NCBI RefSeq assembly: GCF_016903815.1
Contig: NZ_CP069975.1
DNA from: Escherichia coli
GTDB lineage: Bacteria > Pseudomonadota > Gammaproteobacteria > Enterobacterales > Enterobacteriaceae
Reading direction: 5' to 3' (one strand)
DNA: 41,445 nt
This document shows, one piece after another, positions 3,991 through 17,461 of the stretch. Each line of letters opens with the position of its first letter. Within the stretch, counting starts at the first letter, position 1. The position numbers and the translations under genes are program-made. The notes under the pieces were generated by a model that saw nothing but the letters and a program-made list of their open reading frames with translations, was not told the DNA's origin and did no database searches.

Positions 3991-5420
3991 TCCTCCTCAT
4001 ACGAAATATTAAAGGTGGAGTTTTCTGTATCCAGATAAACGAAATCGTAAAAGCCGTTGGACTCATTCCACTCGACAAATTCCAGATAAAAGTCGCGGAA
4101 ATAACCCAGCGTTTCGATAAATGCCCAAACGTCTTTTTTCTTGATTAGGATGTACTTGCCGACACGGTTCGGATCAAAGAAAGTTGAGTCACGCCCAAAT
4201 TTTGTTTCCAGTGCCGACTTCAGCTCATCAGTCACGTTCTCAATGGTCAGGCTTGCCGATATCCGCCCAGTGATAGTGATCTTAAAGGGGAGTTTTCTGA
4301 CCTCTTTATACGAGAATTTCTTGTTCAACTCATTCGGCACCTTCTTAAAGGCAGCCAGGATCACTTCTTCAAGCTCTGACTGGCTTTTGTTTGGATGCCA
4401 TCCTGAAATAAATATCTTATTGATATTCCGAACATTATAAGCACCATCTAATTTCTCTTGCTGGCCTTCGCCCCATGCCTTTACCCAGGACAGTCCCGGG
4501 ATGTTACGCACCAAAAAATACGTATAGTCCCCGCCCCATACGACCTGATCATCATAGGCAAGGTAATATTGTGCACGATTACGTGTGATCTCCGTTGTTT
4601 CGGCATCGGTACCTGCGGTTATGGGTGTCGTTGTCTTAACTGAAATCAAATTAGCTAAATTAGCCGCAGAATCGACAGGCGTCAGGTTTTGGCCAGCAAC
4701 CAGGGTTATATCTCCGTTGGTGCACCATACCTTAAGTGTAATGGTCGAGCCTTCTGGCGGTATTTGCCCAATTAGCCCATCACCGAATCGAACCCCCAAC
4801 TGCTCGGATGGCTTATAAAACTCAACGTAGACCTGGCTTTTACTACCGGCTAACCGGAACATAGTGCTGGAAGACCACTGCGTGGTCTTACCATCGGTCG
4901 TCACGAATACTTCCAGCTTATAGCAGACAGCAGTGAGAGCCTTTGATAACACGACTTCCAGAAATTCTTTGGCTGCCGTAACGGTATATGTCACCTCCTG
5001 GATTTCCAACTGTGCCACTTCTACCGTACCGGTGCCGTCAACCAACCTGCATACATCCATAGTCATGTAAGGGTACTGGTCGTCAGATATTAAAGGCATA
5101 TTTTTGGGGATTACCGCTGGGGCATCTTCACTTGTGGCGGTGATCTCAATCATCCCCGATGACGGTGTTGGCTTGGTACCAACGTAACTATTCGTTTCTG
5201 CCGCTGCCAGGATAGAGGAACGCCGCGTCGCGGTCGATATAAAGCCTTCAGCCAGCGCCGCATCGGCATACTGAAAGCACCTGTAGACAATCTGGGTAAT
5301 AAACAATGTCAGCATCGAGACAAATTGAGAGCCGACAAACTTCGACCAGAATGAATCTTTCTCGACAAGCTCTTCAAACTCTGCACGAATACTGTCTTTA
5401 GTCGGTGTTGTTTTACTCAT
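3987..5420 (-). CDS. Baseplate protein (P1 BplA-like by position)
   Basis: 477-aa ORF in tightly packed structural operon; 4-nt overlaps with both neighbours. Confidence 0.6.
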   Translation of the reverse strand: MSKTTPTKDSIRAEFEELVEKDSFWSKFVGSQFVSMLTLFITQIVYRCFQYADAALAEGFISTATRRSSILAAAETNSYVGTKPTPSSGMIEITATSEDAPAVIPKNMPLISDDQYPYMTMDVCRLVDGTGTVEVAQLEIQEVTYTVTAAKEFLEVVLSKALTAVCYKLEVFVTTDGKTTQWSSSTMFRLAGSKSQVYVEFYKPSEQLGVRFGDGLIGQIPPEGSTITLKVWCTNGDITLVAGQNLTPVDSAANLANLISVKTTTPITAGTDAETTEITRNRAQYYLAYDDQVVWGGDYTYFLVRNIPGLSWVKAWGEGQQEKLDGAYNVRNINKIFISGWHPNKSQSELEEVILAAFKKVPNELNKKFSYKEVRKLPFKITITGRISASLTIENVTDELKSALETKFGRDSTFFDPNRVGKYILIKKKDVWAFIETLGYFRDFYLEFVEWNESNGFYDFVYLDTENSTFNISYEEE

Positions 5421-5776
5421 AGCACCACGTCCTGTGTGATAGTTATATCCCTGATACGAATGGATATTTTCAACTTATCAAAAGCATCTCCCTCGGCTAC
5501 TGACAAGCCAGAAATCGGTATGTCAGGTAAATCTACCGTCAGTTTTTGCAACAGCATTGCCTCAACCGCAATTTGAACATGCGACAAGTTGGTCGGTTCG
5601 TGTTTAAACTGCGGTAAAACATTGCCCCATGACGGATCTCCGTATACCTCACCCTGATAAGTGTTTAGCCACTCATATAAACGAGCGCCCCAGGCCTCCT
5701 CCTGGGACTCATACGTTTTTACGCCGGATAACTCCAGCGTCAGTAAAGGATCAATTTCATTATTGTTGGCCATCAA
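5417..5776 (-). CDS. Small morphogenesis protein (P1 PmgA-like by position)
   Basis: 119-aa ORF, translationally coupled on both sides. Confidence 0.5.
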   Translation of the reverse strand: MMANNNEIDPLLTLELSGVKTYESQEEAWGARLYEWLNTYQGEVYGDPSWGNVLPQFKHEPTNLSHVQIAVEAMLLQKLTVDLPDIPISGLSVAEGDAFDKLKISIRIRDITITQDVVL

Positions 5777-8700
5777 TCAACTCTCGCGTAGTCATTCATC
5801 AACGGATCATCAATTGACAGTGGCACCGTGCGCATAACGCCCGGTTGAGGCGTGCTGACCTTTACGACAGTTCCCTGGCCTTTCGCCGAGTCTTTAGTGT
5901 GCTCTTCAATCCTGGCAAGCAATGAGGTCATCTGCGCAAACAGCCGCTTCGTTTCACCATCAAGTGAAACGGTATTATCAGCCAACTGCATTGTCGGCTT
6001 GGCACCGGAGCCGCCAAGGTCACTAATAACCTGTCCGTCTATCTGCATACGACCGGTTGGTTGCTGCAAATCGTTGGCGGCAGTCGTCACCTGGGACGTG
6101 GAGGCTGGTTCAGGCGCATTATTTTTCCGCATCCCCGGCGAGTTGCGGAGTTTATCAAATAGTCCATCAATCCCCATTTGTGCGCCGAGTTGGTCAAAGT
6201 AACTTGAGTTGCTGGCCACCGGACGCGCCTCTTCAACTGGCATCGGAGTATCAACATACACATTGCCAGCTGCTGTTGCGGTCCCCTTCCCTCGTGCACG
6301 TTCTTCGAGCGTTCCCTGAACGACTTCCCGACGCATACCCCGGCCATTCATGAATTTGTTGACCAGATCGTTAACGCCAACAGCATTGCCAATTTTGTCT
6401 ACCAGACCGCCTTTCTCAAACGGGCTATCACCAGGGGTAAACGCCAGGCCAGTAGACTGATCGATAACAGCGTTATCAGGCAGTGGTCCCCTCACTCCAT
6501 ATTGCGCCCCACCCTGTGCTCCTGCTCCAGGTGTATAGATTTCACCACCTAAATAGCGAGCACGATGAGTATTGACCTTGATCGCGTACTCACGGTTTTC
6601 TTTCGATAAGTCACCTGTGCCTTTTTTCCACTTATTGATAGTGCCAAACCCAGCATTATATGCAGTGATGGCCTCGTTTAAGTCTCCATTGGCTTGCTTC
6701 AGATATTTGCTCATGAGAAGAGCCGCAGCTTCTGCCGATTTCACAGGATCAAACGATTCACCTTCAGCTAAGCCAGTCTCTTCACGAGCAATCCCCGTGA
6801 ACTGAAACATCCCCAGAGCACCGGTTTGGGATTTTGCATACGGATTACCACCAGATTCAGTTGCAGCAATCGCGTAAAGAGTGCCTTCTGGAAGACCGTA
6901 TTTATTCTCTAGTTCGGCAAAATACGGAGCCAACTTATCGAGATTTGCCTTACCTTCAGCGCCAAGACTTCCGACTTTTACATCCAAGTTGCCATTGTTG
7001 TAGGTATCCGCAGCTTTCTGAATGTCATTCCTGGTGCCAGTGGTATTAAGCGACGATGATGACGAGCTATTTTGACCAATAGCTTTATCAATTTTCTGCA
7101 ACGCGCTATTGCCCGTTTCTACGGCATTTGCATTGATAATCTGATTAGCAGTTTCTTTAACTGTTTTATTGCTATCTTTCGCCGTATCTAGGGATGCATT
7201 TACAACACGAGTGACAATATTAGCCTTTTTAGGGGTATATTCAGTCTTAGGAGCATTGTCCTCCTGACTTTCTTTAGCTGGTGTTTTTAATTCAGGTGTA
7301 ACCTCTTTCGCATCCGCTTTGTTGACTAGCTTTGATGCAACCCAGGCCACAGGGGTGCTCTGAACAGCGGCATCTGCAACCTCACCTGAAAGCTCTTTTG
7401 CGGCACTCCATAGATTACTGCCAGCTTCTTTAATGTATTTCCCTGGGTTCTTAATGAAATCAATTGCACTATCAATTGCATCACTGAAAACCTGTTTCAG
7501 GTTATCGACAGTAAAGAAGTTTTTGATGGCGTCTAATTTTTCGTTCAGGTTCTTTGTTGTGTCACTGAACCATGCTGAAATAGCATCACCAATCTTTGCA
7601 GTATAATCACTAAATGTCGTGGATATAGTATCACCAAGGTTAGAAATATATGTTTCTAAATTGGTAATCCCACTATCAATGGCCTGGGCAATACTTTCCG
7701 TCGAAAATGATTGCAACATATTGCCGATATCCTCAAATCCAAGTGATTTGAGAACGCCGCCAATGGCACTGCTAATACCAGATACCAGTCCTCCCATATC
7801 GAGAACGTTAGCCAGTGTATAAGCCGCTTTTTGCTGAAAAGATGGATCTTCCCCATCCTTAAGCCCAAAGGTCCGACGTTGTGCTTCTGTATCATTCCAA
7901 CCGGTTACCGCATCATAGATACCTCCAGCCACCGTGCCGACTAGCGGAATTGCGCGTAAAGCCCCCTTTGCAAGAGCCTTAACACCTAGTTTCCCCAATC
8001 CCTTAGTTGCAAGTTTTCCGGCACCGCGAGTAGCCAATTCGCCAGCTTCTTTGGCAGCAGCTTTTTTCCCACCAAAGCCCAATAAGCTTGCAACTTTTTT
8101 TATACCTAAAGCGCCTAGTGCCATCGAGCCAACTTTCTTTAGTACCCCACGGCCAAAAATAAGGGAAGCAATACCACCGGCCCCCTTCCCTAACAGGCTA
8201 AATAGTTTGGACAGCAAGCCGCCCTTCTTTTTCCCGGTGTTTTTGGCTATCTGATCAAGGGCGCTGAGAATCTTGTCATTGCCCTCTTTAATTTCGCTGG
8301 TCTGCTCCTGAAGTTCCTGAACCGTCCGTTTTTGGGTGTTAACCTGAACGACATCGGCACTATTTTGCGATTTACGCCTAAAAAAACCTTTTCTACGGCT
8401 GTTATCGTCATTGCCACGAATCACATCGGCAATAGACTTTCTGGCACCATTAAGCGATCCACCAACTTCTTTTGATATCCCGCCAAGCTCCTTCCCTGCT
8501 GCCCACAATGGACCAGCAACGGCATAACCTAACGCATCGACGGCACGAGTCTCTGAAGGGTTACCTATGCCTTCAGCTACTTTTGACAGTTTTTTTAATA
8601 AACCTGATTCAGCATTTAGACGCTCATCATCCTCTTTGCGCCTGGCCTTTTCAGCACGTTCAGCACGGACATCTTCCGCTGCGGCCTTACTCCCTGACTT

Positions 8701-11692: not shown

Positions 11693-12169
11693 TCATTTTG
11701 CGCGCTTCAGGCAGCCATCTTCAGGTGCCGCGTTGAAAAGCTCTGCGGCCTTACGTAGCGTAAATGTTGCGATTTTTTTTCCGTCTACGTATGCATCGAA
11801 TGTTTTAACTTCCATATCAGGGGTATCTGACCAAAAACCATACCAGTAACTATCACCCACAGAGGAACCGATAGAACTGATAGGATATTCATCATCACCA
11901 ACTTTCAGCGTTATTTGTTCTTTTTTAGCATCAAATGACTCACCGCCAGGTTCTGTTTTCATGAGAGTGAGTAGTCGTGTTCCTACTTGATTGGGATCCG
12001 TATTATTAAATCCAACATCGCACTCAAATGTAAGCGTATAATTATCTTTGCTGGAAACAGCATAAGAACGAACACCATGAGTCTCGCCGGTTGACCATTT
12101 GCTTACATTTGCCATTGATGAAAACGGAGTAAGCAAAGCAAGAACTAGTAAAAATCGTTTGATGCGCAT
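11693..12169 (-). CDS. Secreted protein with N-terminal signal peptide (sim-region gene)
   Basis: 158-aa ORF; N-terminus MRIKRFLLVLALLTPFSSMA is a typical Sec signal peptide. Confidence 0.6.
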   Translation of the reverse strand: MRIKRFLLVLALLTPFSSMANVSKWSTGETHGVRSYAVSSKDNYTLTFECDVGFNNTDPNQVGTRLLTLMKTEPGGESFDAKKEQITLKVGDDEYPISSIGSSVGDSYWYGFWSDTPDMEVKTFDAYVDGKKIATFTLRKAAELFNAAPEDGCLKRAK

Positions 12170-12220
12170 TAATTTATCTCCTTTGGATATTAATATTTTA
12201 ATTAGTTAACCACCATATAT

Positions 12221-12868
12221 TCACCATTCATAGGGTAAATTAAGCGCTTTTAAACCTTGCTGGAAAGTATTAAGAGATCCGTTTTTTTGTTGTTCCATTT
12301 TTTCGCGTGCAGCTTTCTCATACTGCTCCATCCGTTGGTTATACTCTTGCAATTCCTCCGGGGAGAGGTTTCCCATTGGGGAGTTTGTACCCGGCCCCCT
12401 GGCTCGTTCTTCAAGCGTACCCTGTACGTTTTGATGGCGCATTCCTGGGGCATTTCTTATTGAGTCAATGCCATTTCTTCCAACATCTTCTTTATTAACG
12501 GCATTGCTCGCCACCAGCACACCCCAGCTAGGGATAGCAAAATCAGGAGCGGTTTCGCATGCCTTTACCATATAATCGAAAGTGCTTCGATTGATCTCGT
12601 TTGCGTCGGGATTTAACAGGCTAGAATATTGATATTTAGCATTTTCGTTGGTTGCGACTTTATACAGTTCTTGCTGCACCATCGCTTCAGAAAGTTTAAG
12701 GCGTTTCATATCTGACAGTAACTTCTTGCGCATGGATTCGTCTTGACTGACAGCAAAGCCGTAAACGTGCCCAAGGTATTTCGTATAATCGGTACAAATC
12801 TCCTTTACGCTTGATGCTGCATTAACAGTCCCAGCCATAAATAATAACGGTAGTAATAGTTTTCTCAT
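12221..12868 (-). CDS. Sim-like superinfection-exclusion periplasmic protein (signal peptide; shares a segment with Sit)
   Basis: ORF track 12221..12895; start placed at ATG 12868 (GGTGAGG RBS) giving signal peptide MRKLLLPLLFMAGTVNAAS. Mature part contains NAPGMRHQNVQGTLEERARGPGT, matching Sit residues GRGMRREVVQGTLEERARGKGT. Location between the tube-region genes and the immI-like region matches P1 sim. Confidence 0.6.
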   Translation of the reverse strand: MRKLLLPLLFMAGTVNAASSVKEICTDYTKYLGHVYGFAVSQDESMRKKLLSDMKRLKLSEAMVQQELYKVATNENAKYQYSSLLNPDANEINRSTFDYMVKACETAPDFAIPSWGVLVASNAVNKEDVGRNGIDSIRNAPGMRHQNVQGTLEERARGPGTNSPMGNLSPEELQEYNQRMEQYEKAAREKMEQQKNGSLNTFQQGLKALNLPYEW

Positions 12869-12964
12869 TATAACCTCACCTGCCTTATAACTCATTTAGG
12901 GTACATATTTTCGCCTTTAAAAAAAAGAGGTTATTAGATCCAATTGTGTATTTATTAAGCATGC

Positions 12965-12981
12965 AATGCTCTAATAAATTT
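12965..12981 (+). promoter_or_regulatory. C1-repressor operator-like 17-mer overlapping the -35 of the immI-like promoter
   Basis: AATGCTCTAATAAATTT is 16/17 to the P1 C1 operator consensus ATTGCTCTAATAAATTT as I recall it. ATGCTC, 17 bp, TAAGTC forms a plausible -35/-10. Confidence 0.6.
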
Positions 12982-13139
12982 GTATTTTTAAGTCGCGAAT
13001 GCTATCTTTTCGCATCATATTGACCTTTTAATCGTTCAGGCTTATAGTTCCGCCGTCGTAGCAAATTCTGCGACCGGGTTTAGCAGCCTGAATACTTACG
13101 CGGACAACCGCAGATTTCCGATATTGCGGTATTTTTGTG

Positions 13140-13240
13140 TCCGTAAACCACGTTACGCCCGAATTATGGTGGGGCGTGATGGGGAGGCTTCGGCCTGCTG
13201 GTTTCGTAAGTGCCAGTCTGCTAACCCCGTCACGTCCTGC
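13140..13240 (+). ncRNA. c4: c4-like antisense RNA region (immunity I), approximate boundaries
   Basis: Non-coding stretch between the operator and icd. Contains CTGCTAACC (13218-13226), complementary to the GTTTAGCAG elements at 13079-13087 and 13246-13254 in the icd leader. Boundaries are not determinable by eye. Confidence 0.4.
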
Positions 13241-13293
13241 CACCTGTTTAGCAGCGGGTCGCAGGTTGTTTATCAACTTACGAGGCCGTAACT

Positions 13294-13515
13294 ATGGTTA
13301 ATGCCAATCCTTGCGCACGCCAAGAATTCATCTGGCGTTTCTATTCCTGTAAAAAACACCACTATCACTTCGTTATCGCAGCAACAGAAGACGAAGCACG
13401 CTCTCAATTGCCTGATGGCCCCTGCATTTTTACTGCCCGTTTTTCAACTAACTCGCGCAATTCACTTAGTTACTGGAGCCTCCCCTTCTCTGCCGACGTT
13501 CAGGGGGGTTTATGA
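13294..13515 (+). CDS. icd: Icd-like small protein (interference with cell division), translationally coupled to ant
   Basis: 73-aa ORF; GAGG RBS 7 nt upstream; stop TGA overlaps the ant ATG (ATGA at 13512-13515). Confidence 0.6.
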   Translation: MVNANPCARQEFIWRFYSCKKHHYHFVIAATEDEARSQLPDGPCIFTARFSTNSRNSLSYWSLPFSADVQGGL

Positions 13516-14546
13516 AAACACCTCTCGTCACCCGTAATGAAATAGCCGAAGCGATCGCCTTGCATACTGCCTGTATGCCGACACGGGAGATCCCCGGCGC
13601 AATTGCTAACTATTTCATGATAACCAGACGTTTTTATACCCGAACAGATAAGGCTGTGATCAACAGGCTACTGATAGCCGAGATCAGGGATTATTTGATT
13701 GAACAAGGACGTCTACGTTACGCAACAGTGGCAGCAGAAATGAGAAAGGAGGCACATAGAATGACCGGTAATAATTTAAATGTTGAAAAACCAGCACCTG
13801 TTGCTTCAGCTACGCCAGCACCAGCCCTGAATGTCATCTCCAACACCGGAGACACAATCGACAGCCAAACATTGTTGAAGATGGTCAATGAGGCACGGAA
13901 ATTATGTAGCGAAAAACCAGTTCGCAACAATGATTTCATTGCCAGAGTTAAGGATGAGCTTGAAGGAGAAACCTACGAAATTTTCGTAGGTCAAAAAAAC
14001 GGCGCAGAAATAGATATTATAACCATGACCTACAAACAAGCCCTGCGAGTTGCCGCGCGCGAGTCAAAAGCGGTCCGCCGTTCGCTGATCGACAAACTGG
14101 AAGAATTACAGCAGGCAAACTCCCCTACCCCATCGATCCCCCAGACATTACCAGAAGCCCTACGCCTGGCTGCCGAGTTAGCAGAACAGAAAATGCAGTT
14201 GGAACAACAGCTGGTGGCCGCAGCCCCTAAAGTCGATTTTGCCGACCGGGTATCAGTGGCCAATGGAATCCTGATCGGGAACTTTGCAAAGGTCGTTGGA
14301 CTTAAGCAAAACGCCCTTTTCTCATGGTTGCGCCAGAATGGCATTCTCATGGCTTTTGGAGCGCGCAAAAACGTACCGCGCCAACAGTACATCAACGCCG
14401 GGTATTTCACGGTGAAAGAAGTGGTGCTGGATGATGAAAATGGCTACCAGATACGGCTGACGCCCCAATTAACGGGTAAAGGCCAGCAGTGGTTAACTCG
14501 CAAGCTACTTGATGCTGGTTTGTTAAAACCAGTAGCAATAGGTTAA
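13512..14546 (+). CDS. ant: Antirepressor Ant with C-terminal KilAC-type domain
   Basis: 344-aa ORF; C-terminal ~130 aa (LPEALRLAAELAEQK...GKGQQWL) is about 65% identical to the C-terminus of the downstream KilA-like protein. Confidence 0.7.
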   Translation: MKTPLVTRNEIAEAIALHTACMPTREIPGAIANYFMITRRFYTRTDKAVINRLLIAEIRDYLIEQGRLRYATVAAEMRKEAHRMTGNNLNVEKPAPVASATPAPALNVISNTGDTIDSQTLLKMVNEARKLCSEKPVRNNDFIARVKDELEGETYEIFVGQKNGAEIDIITMTYKQALRVAARESKAVRRSLIDKLEELQQANSPTPSIPQTLPEALRLAAELAEQKMQLEQQLVAAAPKVDFADRVSVANGILIGNFAKVVGLKQNALFSWLRQNGILMAFGARKNVPRQQYINAGYFTVKEVVLDDENGYQIRLTPQLTGKGQQWLTRKLLDAGLLKPVAIG

Positions 14547-14559
14547 CAAAAGAAAAAAA

Positions 14560-14584
14560 CCTGCCAGCAAACTGGCAGGTTTCT
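14560..14584 (+). terminator. Rho-independent terminator after ant
   Basis: CCTGCCAG-CAAA-CTGGCAGG stem-loop followed by TTTCT. Confidence 0.7.
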
Positions 14585-14624
14585 GAGCAGATCGTCCAAC
14601 CCGATCTGGATCGAGTCAGAAAAA

Positions 14625-14641
14625 TTTGCTCTAATAAATTT
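14625..14641 (+). promoter_or_regulatory. C1 operator-like 17-mer overlapping the -35 of the kilA-repL promoter
   Basis: TTTGCTCTAATAAATTT (16/17 to consensus). TTGCTC, 17 bp, TAAGTG; 70 bp upstream of kilA. Confidence 0.6.
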
Positions 14642-14710
14642 CGTTTTCTAAGTGCAAAGAATCACCATTTCGAGCTGGTGATTGAAGGTTGATGCAAATT
14701 TGGAGAAAAA

Positions 14711-15511
14711 ATGCAACAAACATTCAATGCGGATATGAATATATCAAACCTTCATCAAAATGTCGATCCTTCAACCACTCTGCCCGTTATTTGTGGTGTT
14801 GAAATTACGACCGACCGCGCTGGCCGTTACAACCTTAATGCTCTACACAGAGCGAGCGGACTCGGTGCCCATAAAGCGCCAGCTCAATGGCTAAGAACGC
14901 TGTCAGCAAAACAGCTCATCGAAGAGCTTGAAAAAGAAACTATGCAGAATTGCATAGTTTCGTTCGAAGGCCGTGGCGGCGGCACTTTTGCCCATGAATT
15001 GCTCGCTGTGGAGTACGCAGGCTGGATTTCTCCCGCGTTTCGGCTGAAGGTAAACCAGACATTTATCGACTATCGAGCCGGAAGATTACAACCTGCTATT
15101 CCGCAGAGTCTCCCTGAAGCTCTCCGTTTGGCTGCCGACCTGGCAGAGCAAAAGCAACGGCTGGAGCAAAAAATGCTTATGGATGCACCTAAAGTCGAAT
15201 TCGCCGAACGCGTTGCTACCGCCAGCGGGGTTCTAATCGGCAACTATGCCAAAGTGCTCGGCCTGGGCCAAAACTATCTCTTCACCTGGTTGCGTGATAA
15301 CGGAATTCTGATCGCAACCGGTGAACGCAGGAACGTCCCCAAACAAGAATACATATCCCGTGGGTATTTCACCCTTAAAGAAACCGTGATCGATACAAGC
15401 AATGGAAGCAGGATTTCTTTCACGACTCGTATAACCGGCAAAGGTCAGCAGTGGCTGATGAAGCGATTGCTTGATGCTGGTGTGCTGGTACCTGTCGCGG
15501 CAACGCGCTAA
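14711..15511 (+). CDS. kilA: KilA-like protein (KilA-N domain plus KilAC domain)
   Basis: 266-aa ORF; GGAGA RBS; N-terminal KilA-N-like segment; C-terminal domain paralogous to Ant. Confidence 0.7.
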   Translation: MQQTFNADMNISNLHQNVDPSTTLPVICGVEITTDRAGRYNLNALHRASGLGAHKAPAQWLRTLSAKQLIEELEKETMQNCIVSFEGRGGGTFAHELLAVEYAGWISPAFRLKVNQTFIDYRAGRLQPAIPQSLPEALRLAADLAEQKQRLEQKMLMDAPKVEFAERVATASGVLIGNYAKVLGLGQNYLFTWLRDNGILIATGERRNVPKQEYISRGYFTLKETVIDTSNGSRISFTTRITGKGQQWLMKRLLDAGVLVPVAATR

Positions 15512-15540
15512 CAGACGTAGTAAGAACCACCAGCATTGTA

Positions 15541-16386
15541 ATGCTGGCTAAAGTCACTTTCCTGAGCTGTATAACGATGAGCGATTTTACTTTTTCTGGC
15601 TATGAATTGGCCTGCTTTGTAACACACTCCGGTCTATCCCGTAGCACCTGGCATATCCTGTCGCAATGTGCAAATCTCGCGGCAACAACCAGTGAATACT
15701 TCATTCACAAGCCTCACCGCCTGATCGCGGCAGAAACTGGTTATAGCCAATCAACCGTCGTTCGTGCATTCCGTGAAGCTGTAAACAAAGGAATTCTGTC
15801 TGTAGAGATTGTTATCGGCGATCACCGTGAACGTCGCGCTAACCTGTACCGGTTTACGCCATCCTTTTTGGCCTTCGCACAACAAGCCAAAAATGCGCTG
15901 ATTGAAAGCAAATTAAAGATCTCTTCAGCGGCAACCAAGGTTAAAGCTGTTCTCGCTAAGACATTGGCTTTATTTAATTTTTTATCCACACCCCCATGTC
16001 AAAATGATACCCCCTCCCCCTGTCAGGATGACGTGGCAATAAAGAATAAGAAGTCACAAGTTAAAAAAACAAAAAGATCAGTTTCCGGCGGTGCCGGAAC
16101 GAGCAGACTCAAAAAATTGACTTCATGGATCGCTGAGGCAAAAGCAAAGGCTGACAATCTGCGGTTATCCAAAAAGCGCGCTCAAAAACATGAGTTCAAG
16201 CAGAAAGTAGAGGCGGCAGCGCGGAAATATGCTTACCTGAAGAACAAGCGTTCTCCTGATATTGGCGGGGTATCAAACTTCGATAATTTGCCGCATTGCA
16301 TGACGGTAAACGAAGCTCTTAATGCGGTTTTAGCCAAAAATAAAGATAACGAACAATGGGGTATACCGGCAGGATTCAGAGGGTGA
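15541..16386 (+). CDS. repL: RepL-like lytic replication initiator
   Basis: 281-aa ORF immediately after kilA under the same operator-controlled promoter, as in the P1 lytic replicon; basic C-terminal half. The alternative start at ATG 15577 cannot be excluded. Confidence 0.6.
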   Translation: MLAKVTFLSCITMSDFTFSGYELACFVTHSGLSRSTWHILSQCANLAATTSEYFIHKPHRLIAAETGYSQSTVVRAFREAVNKGILSVEIVIGDHRERRANLYRFTPSFLAFAQQAKNALIESKLKISSAATKVKAVLAKTLALFNFLSTPPCQNDTPSPCQDDVAIKNKKSQVKKTKRSVSGGAGTSRLKKLTSWIAEAKAKADNLRLSKKRAQKHEFKQKVEAAARKYAYLKNKRSPDIGGVSNFDNLPHCMTVNEALNAVLAKNKDNEQWGIPAGFRG

Positions 16387-16436
16387 TAGATTGCTCTAAT
16401 CTGGAGTCACCTGGCGTTTTCAGTTTGAGGTCGGAG

Positions 16437-16682
16437 ATGCAATCTGATTTTTTACAGTTAGCGATCGCTTTTGCAGGATATGTTTGTATTGGCTTCTGTG
16501 TATACATGATCAGCCGAAAAATGCTTGTCGATATCGACCGCAAAGAACAAGCAGAGGAGATCTTAGAATGGATTTTCTTTGGCGCGGTCTGGCCATTAGG
16601 GATCATGTTTGCTGCAACATTTCTTCTGATGTGGATATTCACCCTTCCAGGTGATTTCTATAGAAAAAAAGCCAGACATTGA
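16437..16682 (+). CDS. Small membrane protein (two predicted TM helices)
   Basis: ORF track 16356..16682; start placed at ATG 16437 directly after GGAG. Hydrophobic segments LAIAFAGYVCIGFCVYMI and IFFGAVWPLGIMFAATFLLMWIF. Confidence 0.4.
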   Translation: MQSDFLQLAIAFAGYVCIGFCVYMISRKMLVDIDRKEQAEEILEWIFFGAVWPLGIMFAATFLLMWIFTLPGDFYRKKARH

Positions 16683-16864
16683 TACAATCGTTGCGGGTGC
16701 TTGAGGCTATCTGCTTCAGGCATTACCCGAAAAGCAGATAGAAGAAAGCCCCAGATAACATTACGCGTCCTGCAAGACGCTTAACATTAATCTGAGGCCA
16801 TATCTATGCTTAGCATACGTAGATTAACCCTCTCCCCTTTTAAGGAGCAAGGAATTTTTTACTG

Positions 16865-17461
16865 CTATGCCGCATTTCCAATTATGGATTCAGCGACCAG
16901 AACAACCCCATGCTTACTTCGATCTGGGTGTTCACTCCATATCTCGGATTCAGGAATACTTACCCCGTCATAGCAAACACGTTCGCCGTCAAACGGGTAA
17001 TACTGAGCGGCATCGGTGTCAAGGATAAACACTTTTAGCTCGGAAGAGCGACGGGCGATGTGTTGCCAAAGAGCTTTTCCACCTTCGTATTGCTCATTAT
17101 CACTGAGCAAAACAACACCAGCTTTTGAGGCTACGGTTTCGTAAACAAAAGTAGCTAAACCGACATCCCGGACGGTTCCATCAACCACGATACCTTCAAT
17201 CTGGGCAACATCGCTATCCTCCCAGAACTTCCTTACCAGTACGCCTTCAAGCTGCGGGCGACGTTGAAGTTCAAGAGTAGCGACAACCTTATGGCGCATA
17301 TCACCATCGATAACAGAAGGCGCAGCCTCTATTACAGCTGCAAATGGGGTTTTGGAATCCCATATAACCTGGTAAAGCACACCCTGGATGGTAACTCCGT
17401 CCAGGATCGAAAATCGACGAGCGACAGTACCCGGGGAGTACGACATTGGAATCACAGCCAT
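16865..17461 (-). CDS. Hypothetical protein (P1 PmgF-like by position)
   Basis: ORF track 16865..17497; start placed at ATG 17461 with strong RBS AAGGGGGA. Confidence 0.5.
   Translation of the reverse strand: MAVIPMSYSPGTVARRFSILDGVTIQGVLYQVIWDSKTPFAAVIEAAPSVIDGDMRHKVVATLELQRRPQLEGVLVRKFWEDSDVAQIEGIVVDGTVRDVGLATFVYETVASKAGVVLLSDNEQYEGGKALWQHIARRSSELKVFILDTDAAQYYPFDGERVCYDGVSIPESEIWSEHPDRSKHGVVLVAESIIGNAA

Follow-up and report, generated by a model that had tools for sequence, protein, structure and literature searches.

In the phages P1 and P7, whose records carry detailed annotation of the immI region, the antirepressor Ant antagonizes the repressor C1 as an Ant1/Ant2/C1 complex, and P1 KilA, which is dispensable for replication, kills the host upon expression (annotation and literature). 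That Ant and KilA share a domain is already known, because the Pfam family PF03374 ("ANT: phage antirepressor protein KilAC domain"), which is named for this pair, takes its definition from P1 KilA and Ant. KilAC was originally defined from the C-terminal part of P1 KilA and called highly mobile (Iyer et al., 2002, as quoted in papers that cite it); it is a C-terminal module joined to interchangeable N-terminal domains (KilA-N, Bro-N, Rha, and AntA/B). Here we analyzed a stretch of 41,445 nucleotides (nt) of Escherichia coli DNA (the window; contig NZ_CP069975.1 of assembly GCF_016903815.1) in which an earlier note had drawn attention to the shared C-terminal domain of two neighboring gene products, Ant and KilA. 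With a probability of about 0.9, the region is the immI region and lytic replicon of a P1-type phage-plasmid, in which Ant and KilA carry one KilAC each, the two copies are old paralogues, and KilA has undergone a domain swap. To the known domain sharing, this adds a quantified antiquity of the pair, a probable chimeric origin of KilA, an N-terminal domain in Ant2 that appears remotely Rha-like, and a tentative fold for KilAC.

Outside P1 and P7, the closest described proteins are Roi of Shiga toxin (Stx) and other lambdoid phages and further proteins that combine Rha with KilAC. Their KilAC is 63 to 73% identical to that of P1 KilA (KilA-C), as close as or closer than that of Ant (Ant-C), and all are alike in size at about 235 to 245 amino acids (aa). 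They differ from KilA in having a canonical Rha N-terminal domain (PF09669) instead of KilA-N, and their genes lie in the lambdoid early region, not beside a replication initiator. The only cases in which KilAC has been assayed alone are Listeria AriS, Staphylococcus Phi11 Gp07, and Acinetobacter CreP. These carry the same Pfam domain but come from other hosts, are distant (about 30 to 43% identity to P1 KilA-C), and have N-terminal domains different from those of Ant and KilA (AntA/B, Bro-N, or none). On its own, KilAC inhibits the SOS response in the case of Listeria AriS-like proteins and causes filamentation in the cases of Phi11 Gp07 in E. coli and CreP in Acinetobacter and E. coli, with weak coimmunoprecipitation of FtsZ for CreP.

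Ant and KilA of a P1-type locus share a KilAC domain

In the list of open reading frames (ORFs) of the window, ant1 is located at positions 13512 to 14546 on the plus strand (344 aa; phrog_63, "anti-repressor Ant," E value of 3e-103) and kilA at positions 14711 to 15511 on the same strand (266 aa; Pfam domains KilA-N and ANT). Both proteins were assigned to phrog_63. A BLASTP comparison of Ant with KilA gave an E value of 3e-66, with 104 of 200 positions identical in the extended local alignment; this value, together with the match to a real Pfam domain, ruled out chance or low complexity as the source of the likeness. Aligned globally from LPEALRLAA to the end, the C-terminal domains are identical at 85 of 133 positions (64%) with a single one-residue gap, and tblastn found 65.4% identity over 130 aa (E value of 1e-58). 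A third KilAC copy was not detected by tblastn in the 41-kb window. The motifs LPEALRLAA(E/D)LAEQK and GKGQQWL occur in both proteins, and the two domains start 962 nt apart.

The KilAC domain of Ant spans positions 14148 to 14543 on the plus strand (aa 213 to 344; PF03374 E value of 1.2e-30, 106.4 bits) and that of KilA positions 15110 to 15508, also on the plus strand (aa 134 to 266; E value of 2e-32, 112.2 bits). Both scores are about four times the gathering score of the family (25.3 bits). The matches run end to end, covering profile positions 1 to 106 of 108 in both proteins (Ant aa 231 to 333 and KilA aa 152 to 254). No difference from the family, of which both proteins are founding members, was seen; the modular pairing of KilAC with KilA-N, Rha, and other N-terminal domains is likewise as the literature describes. 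The earlier note, which had estimated by eye a domain of about 130 aa at about 65% identity with copies 1 kb apart and had quoted both motifs, was accurate on each of these points (132 and 133 aa, 64%, 962 nt): the pairwise alignment that it proposed gave an identity not much below its estimate, and the profile search that it proposed recovered PF03374 in both proteins.

A megablast search with positions 13000 to 16500 matched 26 phage records. Every one belongs to a P1-like phage (Punavirus), and the highest-ranking are phi456 (98.5% DNA identity), RCS47, P7 (97%), and P1 (96%). Ant1, KilA, and RepL are the labels on the matching genes in the records of P1-like phages, and the names that the earlier note had given to Ant and KilA thus agree with the annotation of P1, P7, and phi456 as well as with the DNA identity. 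The window outside ant-kilA-repL is likewise P1-like. At the protein level, Ant1 is identical to its P1 homologue at 315 of 347 positions (91%) and to its P7 homologue at 325 of 348 (93%), with a length of 344 aa against 347 and 348 aa in P1 and P7; KilA is identical to that of P1 at 265 of 266 positions and to that of P7 at all 266. Two findings had been set as refuting this identification, a missing PF03374 match and a loss of synteny with P1; we checked for both and found neither, and nothing else that we found contradicts a P1-type locus.

Age of the two KilAC copies

The codon-aligned DNA of Ant-C and KilA-C is 62% identical, with 69, 80, and 39% identity at the first, second, and third codon positions, and the longest exact run common to both is 12 nt. 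RecA-dependent exchange in E. coli generally needs roughly 20 to 30 bp of identity. The duplication that gave rise to the two domains appears to be old, because third-position identity is down to 39% and the longest run is so short. Ant-C and KilA-C are identical at 85 of 133 positions alike in P1, P7, and the window, and each of the window copies is 100% identical in amino acid sequence to its P1 counterpart. From these comparisons we infer that Ant-C and KilA-C are old, stable paralogues that show no trace of gene conversion and do not exchange sequence at present. The earlier note had proposed that paralogous domains this close are substrates for domain shuffling. Shuffling in the past is clear, but with 62% DNA identity and a longest run of 12 nt the two copies are today poorly suited to homologous recombination, and their constant identity across P1, P7, and the window leaves no realistic exchange at present.

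A probable past domain swap in KilA

Among 40 homologues whose KilA-N is 58 to 83% identical to that of P1, the attached KilAC is only 31 to 44% identical. In contrast, P1 KilA-C is 63 to 73% identical to the KilAC domains of P1- and Salmonella-type Ant proteins, of proteins combining Rha with KilAC, and of the Stx-phage proteins labeled Roi. In all of 1,000 column resamplings, every Ant/Rha/Roi-type KilAC was closer to P1 KilA-C than was any other KilAC linked to KilA-N. A past domain swap is indicated because the KilAC domains of the KilA-N relatives are distant while those of the Ant/Rha/Roi proteins are close: judged by these identities, P1 KilA is probably a chimera of KilA-N and a KilAC from the enterobacterial Ant/Rha/Roi subgroup, not from the subgroup with which KilA-N is usually associated. 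The branching inside the group formed by Ant, Rha, Roi, and KilA-C is weak (bootstrap value of 0.24 for the exact clade), and we therefore name no donor, the neighboring ant included. If P1 KilA is such a chimera, it would be a concrete and datable case of the module exchange known for the KilAC family.

In Salmonella contigs of P1-like plasmids (positions 4300 to 7200), toxin-antitoxin pairs (Gp49/HI1420-type or PrlF/YhaV), and not kilA-repL, come after ant. The Ant proteins of these plasmids are 333 to 337 aa long and 53 to 56% identical in their N-terminal part, and in one lineage a 232-aa Rha-domain gene precedes ant and replaces icd. Because ant occurs there without kilA-repL, the pairing of Ant with KilA appears to be specific to the P1/P7 subgroup, and the Salmonella plasmids provide no independent lineage in which coevolution of Ant-C and KilA-C could be followed.

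N-terminal domains of Ant and KilA

The KilA-N domain of KilA is found at positions 14789 to 15079 on the plus strand (aa 27 to 123) and matches PF04383 with an E value of 3.7e-21 and 75.4 bits, against a gathering score of 23.8 bits. The N-terminal 212 aa of Ant gave no match to PF04383 even at an E value of 10. A homologue search with these 212 aa returned only near-identical P1-like Ant proteins, unusable for a deep alignment, and when 1.8 billion representative proteins were searched, the region split into two modules. The first, at about aa 1 to 95, is an Ant1-specific extension that also occurs alone; Ant1 consists of Ant2 plus an 83-aa N-terminal extension. The second is a domain of about 100 aa (about aa 107 to 205; positions 13830 to 14126, plus strand), which is the middle domain of Ant1 and the N-terminal domain of Ant2 and which forms the N terminus of hundreds of proteins of 220 to 260 aa. 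KilAC is attached in 31 of 64 such proteins, about half; the remainder have other C termini, and the Ant middle domain is itself a module that moves separately.

The Ant middle domain has no Pfam match of its own. Phage_pRha (PF09669) did not match the Ant of the window and matched only 1 of the 64 relatives (E value of 0.0076), whereas a profile-profile comparison by hhalign with the Rha domains of proteins combining Rha with KilAC gave a probability of 89.9% (E value of 1.7e-6 over 94 columns). Because the PF09669 model is unmatched and the profile-profile probability is 89.9%, the domain is best described as remotely Rha-like and not as a member of PF09669. With the KilA-N profile, the hhalign probability was 0.3%. 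A homology between the N-terminal parts of Ant and KilA was considered and rejected: the BLASTP alignment runs about 60 residues upstream of LPEALRLAA, yet this extension contributes only 32 raw BLOSUM62 units on its own, and given the hhalign probability as well, we treat the two as not homologous at the sequence level. Ant2 (261 aa) and KilA (266 aa) are thus built on one two-domain plan with different N-terminal modules, KilA-N in KilA and the Rha-like middle domain in Ant, just as the earlier note had claimed when it described the shared domain as fused to different N-terminal domains.

Within ant, a variable patch was observed at positions 13800 to 14100, in the Rha-like middle domain. 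Here the window is 60 to 94% identical in nucleotide sequence to P1 and 82 to 90% identical to P7, with flanks of at least 96%, and the patch is identical to that of phi456. Identity to P1 goes down to 60% in this patch; the ant region also departs from those of P1 and P7 in the b' loop of c4 and in the target of that loop.

Predicted structure and possible roles of KilAC

A sequence search of solved structures returned nothing for KilA and only chance matches to angiotensinogen for Ant. AlphaFold2 models reached a mean predicted local distance difference test (pLDDT) score of 87.9 for Ant2 (64-sequence alignment) and 75.6 for KilA (46 sequences), with 82 to 94 over most of the KilAC core. The Ant middle domain was modeled with pLDDT above 90 and a beta-alpha-alpha-beta-beta-alpha layout. 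In both models, KilAC consists of a helix of about 37 residues, a strand-helix-turn-helix unit, short strands, a long beta-hairpin, and a final helix. Between Ant-C and KilA-C, the last helix is the most alike (76% identity) and the hairpin the least (48%), with the long helix at 68% and the winged-helix core at 67%. The top structural matches of both models were winged-helix DNA-binding domains of the MerR type and of Par, RacA, and excisionase, with modest scores; Foldseek gave nothing below an E value of 0.2. The models suggest, tentatively, that the KilAC fold comprises a long helix and, after it, a winged helix resembling those of MerR and excisionase, and this fold gives a testable handle on the domain.

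The roles reported for KilAC in the literature differ by phage and include SOS inhibition, a division block, and antirepression. For the pair in the window, the most likely option, although its chances fall somewhat short of even, is that KilAC serves as a common effector or assembly module, with the place and the target of action of each protein determined by its N-terminal domain. KilAC would bind a protein partner, oligomerize through its long helix, or both. The outcome for Ant would be inactivation of C1 in the Ant1/Ant2/C1 complex, an activity that the 91 to 93% identity to P1 and P7 Ant1 makes probable in the window as well, and the outcome for KilA would be host killing or a block in cell division. 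In the prophage, C1 would silence ant and kilA through separate operators, and c4 RNA would silence ant in addition. Several points weigh against such an effector or assembly role. The assignment of the C1 contact to a particular domain of Ant and protein binding by KilA-C are both suppositions. The matched folds are those of DNA-binding domains, and KilAC could equally bind DNA; in line with this, Stx-phage relatives that are 64 to 68% identical carry the label "DNA-binding protein Roi." Finally, ant1, ant2, and kilA were all nonessential in a CRISPR interference screen of P1, and any phenotypes are therefore expected to be subtle.

A possible but less likely explanation is that KilAC is mainly a DNA-binding domain, so that each protein would combine two nucleic acid-binding modules and the two would share a DNA target and not a protein partner. 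It draws on the winged helices of MerR type, Par, RacA, and excisionase that head the structural matches of both models, on the annotation of close relatives from Stx and Vibrio phages as DNA-binding protein Roi, and on a helix-turn-helix-like stretch, IGNFAKVVGLKQNALFSWLRQNG, that is 67% conserved between Ant-C and KilA-C.

The earlier note had also suggested that the two domains may target the same host factor. The idea is a reasonable one: if both KilAC domains bound one host factor, for example RecA or FtsZ, Ant and KilA would each put an activity directed at the host under the control of C1. The KilAC domain by itself is enough for SOS inhibition in the Listeria AriS homologues and for filamentation in the cases of Phi11 Gp07 and CreP, the latter with the weak FtsZ coimmunoprecipitation, and expression of P1 KilA kills the host. 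However, those KilAC domains are only 30 to 43% identical to the P1 copies, the documented target of Ant is the phage repressor C1 and not a host factor, and division inhibition is already the dedicated task of Icd in the P1 immI operon, all of which makes a common host target unlikely.

It is similarly unlikely that KilA is a second antirepressor that is itself repressed by C1 and that binds C1 or joins the Ant1/Ant2 complex via KilAC, possibly through the long helix. Leakage from the kilA operator, Op53, would then weaken C1 further and create a positive-feedback commitment switch tied to the lytic replication driven by repL, and the shared domain would represent a shared C1- or Ant-binding surface instead of a common host target. 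For the effector or assembly role favored above, as for its alternatives, P1 offers a natural pair of KilAC proteins that differ in their N-terminal domains, and because both are encoded by the same well-studied genome, the pair lends itself to clean domain swaps.

Very improbable, and largely refuted, is a recent local duplication whose copies are kept alike by gene conversion and remain an active recombination substrate. In its favor, both copies are on one strand with starts separated by 962 nt, and each ranks among the nearer relatives of the other (64 to 65%). However, their DNA is only 62% identical with third codon positions close to saturation, their longest identical run of 12 nt is below what RecA needs, P1, P7, and the window all stand at 85 of 133, and KilA-C is nearer to proteins combining Rha with KilAC and to Ant from Salmonella P1-like plasmids (68 to 73%) than to the neighboring Ant-C.

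Gene order and regulatory elements

Regulatory elements were placed by alignment to the annotated P1 reference record and the P7 record. The gene order is Op51-c4-icd-ant1/ant2, followed by Op53-kilA-repL. The position of Ant1 and Ant2, the operator Op51, the promoters, the c4 RNA gene, the icd overlap, and the in-frame start of Ant2 are the same as in P1 and P7, and as in the P1 operon, kilA comes first under P53/Op53, directly before repL, with P53as in its 5' end.

The C1 operator Op51 (Oc4) is found at positions 12965 to 12981 on the plus strand (AATGCTCTAATAAATTT; one mismatch to the C1 consensus) and controls the c4-icd-ant operon. The promoters of this immI operon, P51a (positions 12980 to 13008) and P51b (13020 to 13048), both on the plus strand, show no difference from the promoters annotated as P2c4 and P1c4 in P1, and P51b was also recovered by a promoter consensus scan. 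The c4 antisense RNA gene, which represses translation of icd and ant, was mapped from the P1 annotation to positions 13168 to 13244 on the plus strand, upstream of ant, with 69 of 77 positions identical to P1 and 73 of 77 to P7. The ORF that maps to P1 icd (positions 13294 to 13515, plus strand; 73 aa) overlaps the ant1 start with its stop codon (ATGA). According to the alignment with the annotated P1 record, ant2 starts in frame within ant1 at position 13761 on the plus strand (261 aa; Met codon invariant).

A GC-rich hairpin with a 13-bp stem, identical in sequence in P1 and P7, is located between ant and kilA at positions 14555 to 14584. A scan found it terminator-like on the minus strand, about 150 to 180 nt downstream of P53as, and it is probably where both the ant operon (plus strand) and the P53as antisense RNA (minus strand) end. 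The promoter P53 (PkilA; positions 14607 to 14635, plus strand) differs from that of P1 by one base and is overlapped by the C1 operator Op53 (OrepL; positions 14625 to 14641, plus strand; TTTGCTCTAATAAATTT; one mismatch to the consensus); GATC (Dam) sites lie directly upstream of P53/Op53. The antisense promoter P53as (PaskilA; positions 14738 to 14766, minus strand), inside the 5' end of kilA, is identical to that of P1 and scored 10/12 in the consensus scan. From P53, kilA is cotranscribed with repL (positions 15541 to 16386, plus strand; 281 aa), the lytic replication initiator, which is 98 to 100% identical in nucleotide sequence to the genes annotated as RepL in P1, P7, and phi456.

Op51 and Op53 are base for base the same as the annotated P1 operators, which bears out the earlier note's claim that ant and kilA stand under separate operator-controlled promoters. 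Both were also found independently among the matches to the C1 consensus in the window (5 matches versus 0.2 expected). The further matches are a single site at positions 30079 to 30095 and an overlapping inverted pair at positions 33760 to 33787, with a perfect consensus on the plus strand and two mismatches on the minus strand; presumably these correspond to other known P1 operators.

In the c4/ant region (positions 13168 to 13283), the a' loop of c4 is of the P7 type (CTGCTAA, with the target a2 TTAGCAG). The b' loop reads CGTAAGT, versus CACTAAC in P1 and CACAATC in P7, and the target b2 has a matching compensatory change (ACTTACGA, versus GTTAGTGA in P1 and GATTGTGA in P7). By their sequence, these loops look like a third immI specificity type.

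Differences from P1 and P7 elsewhere in the window

The top-ranking P1-like phage matches do not cover the first 1.9 kb or so of the window (positions 1 to 1937). At the place of simB and simC in P1 there are, in the window, two ORFs of 224 and 158 aa with signal-peptide-like N termini (positions 11693 to 12895, minus strand) in a kilobase of low G+C content (39.6%). Of the 224-aa ORF, only a stretch of 57 aa matches the P1 locus (88% over the simA region). The phi456 labels for the genes at the simB/simC position, "minor tail protein" and "tail tip protein," look doubtful.

Directly 3' of repL, at about positions 16390 to 17000, the window diverges from P1 and P7, and the rlfA/rlfB (rapA) genes and Op55 that P1 has downstream of repL are absent. 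The arrangement matches that of phi456, with a 108-aa ORF with predicted hydrophobic stretches in their stead at positions 16356 to 16682.

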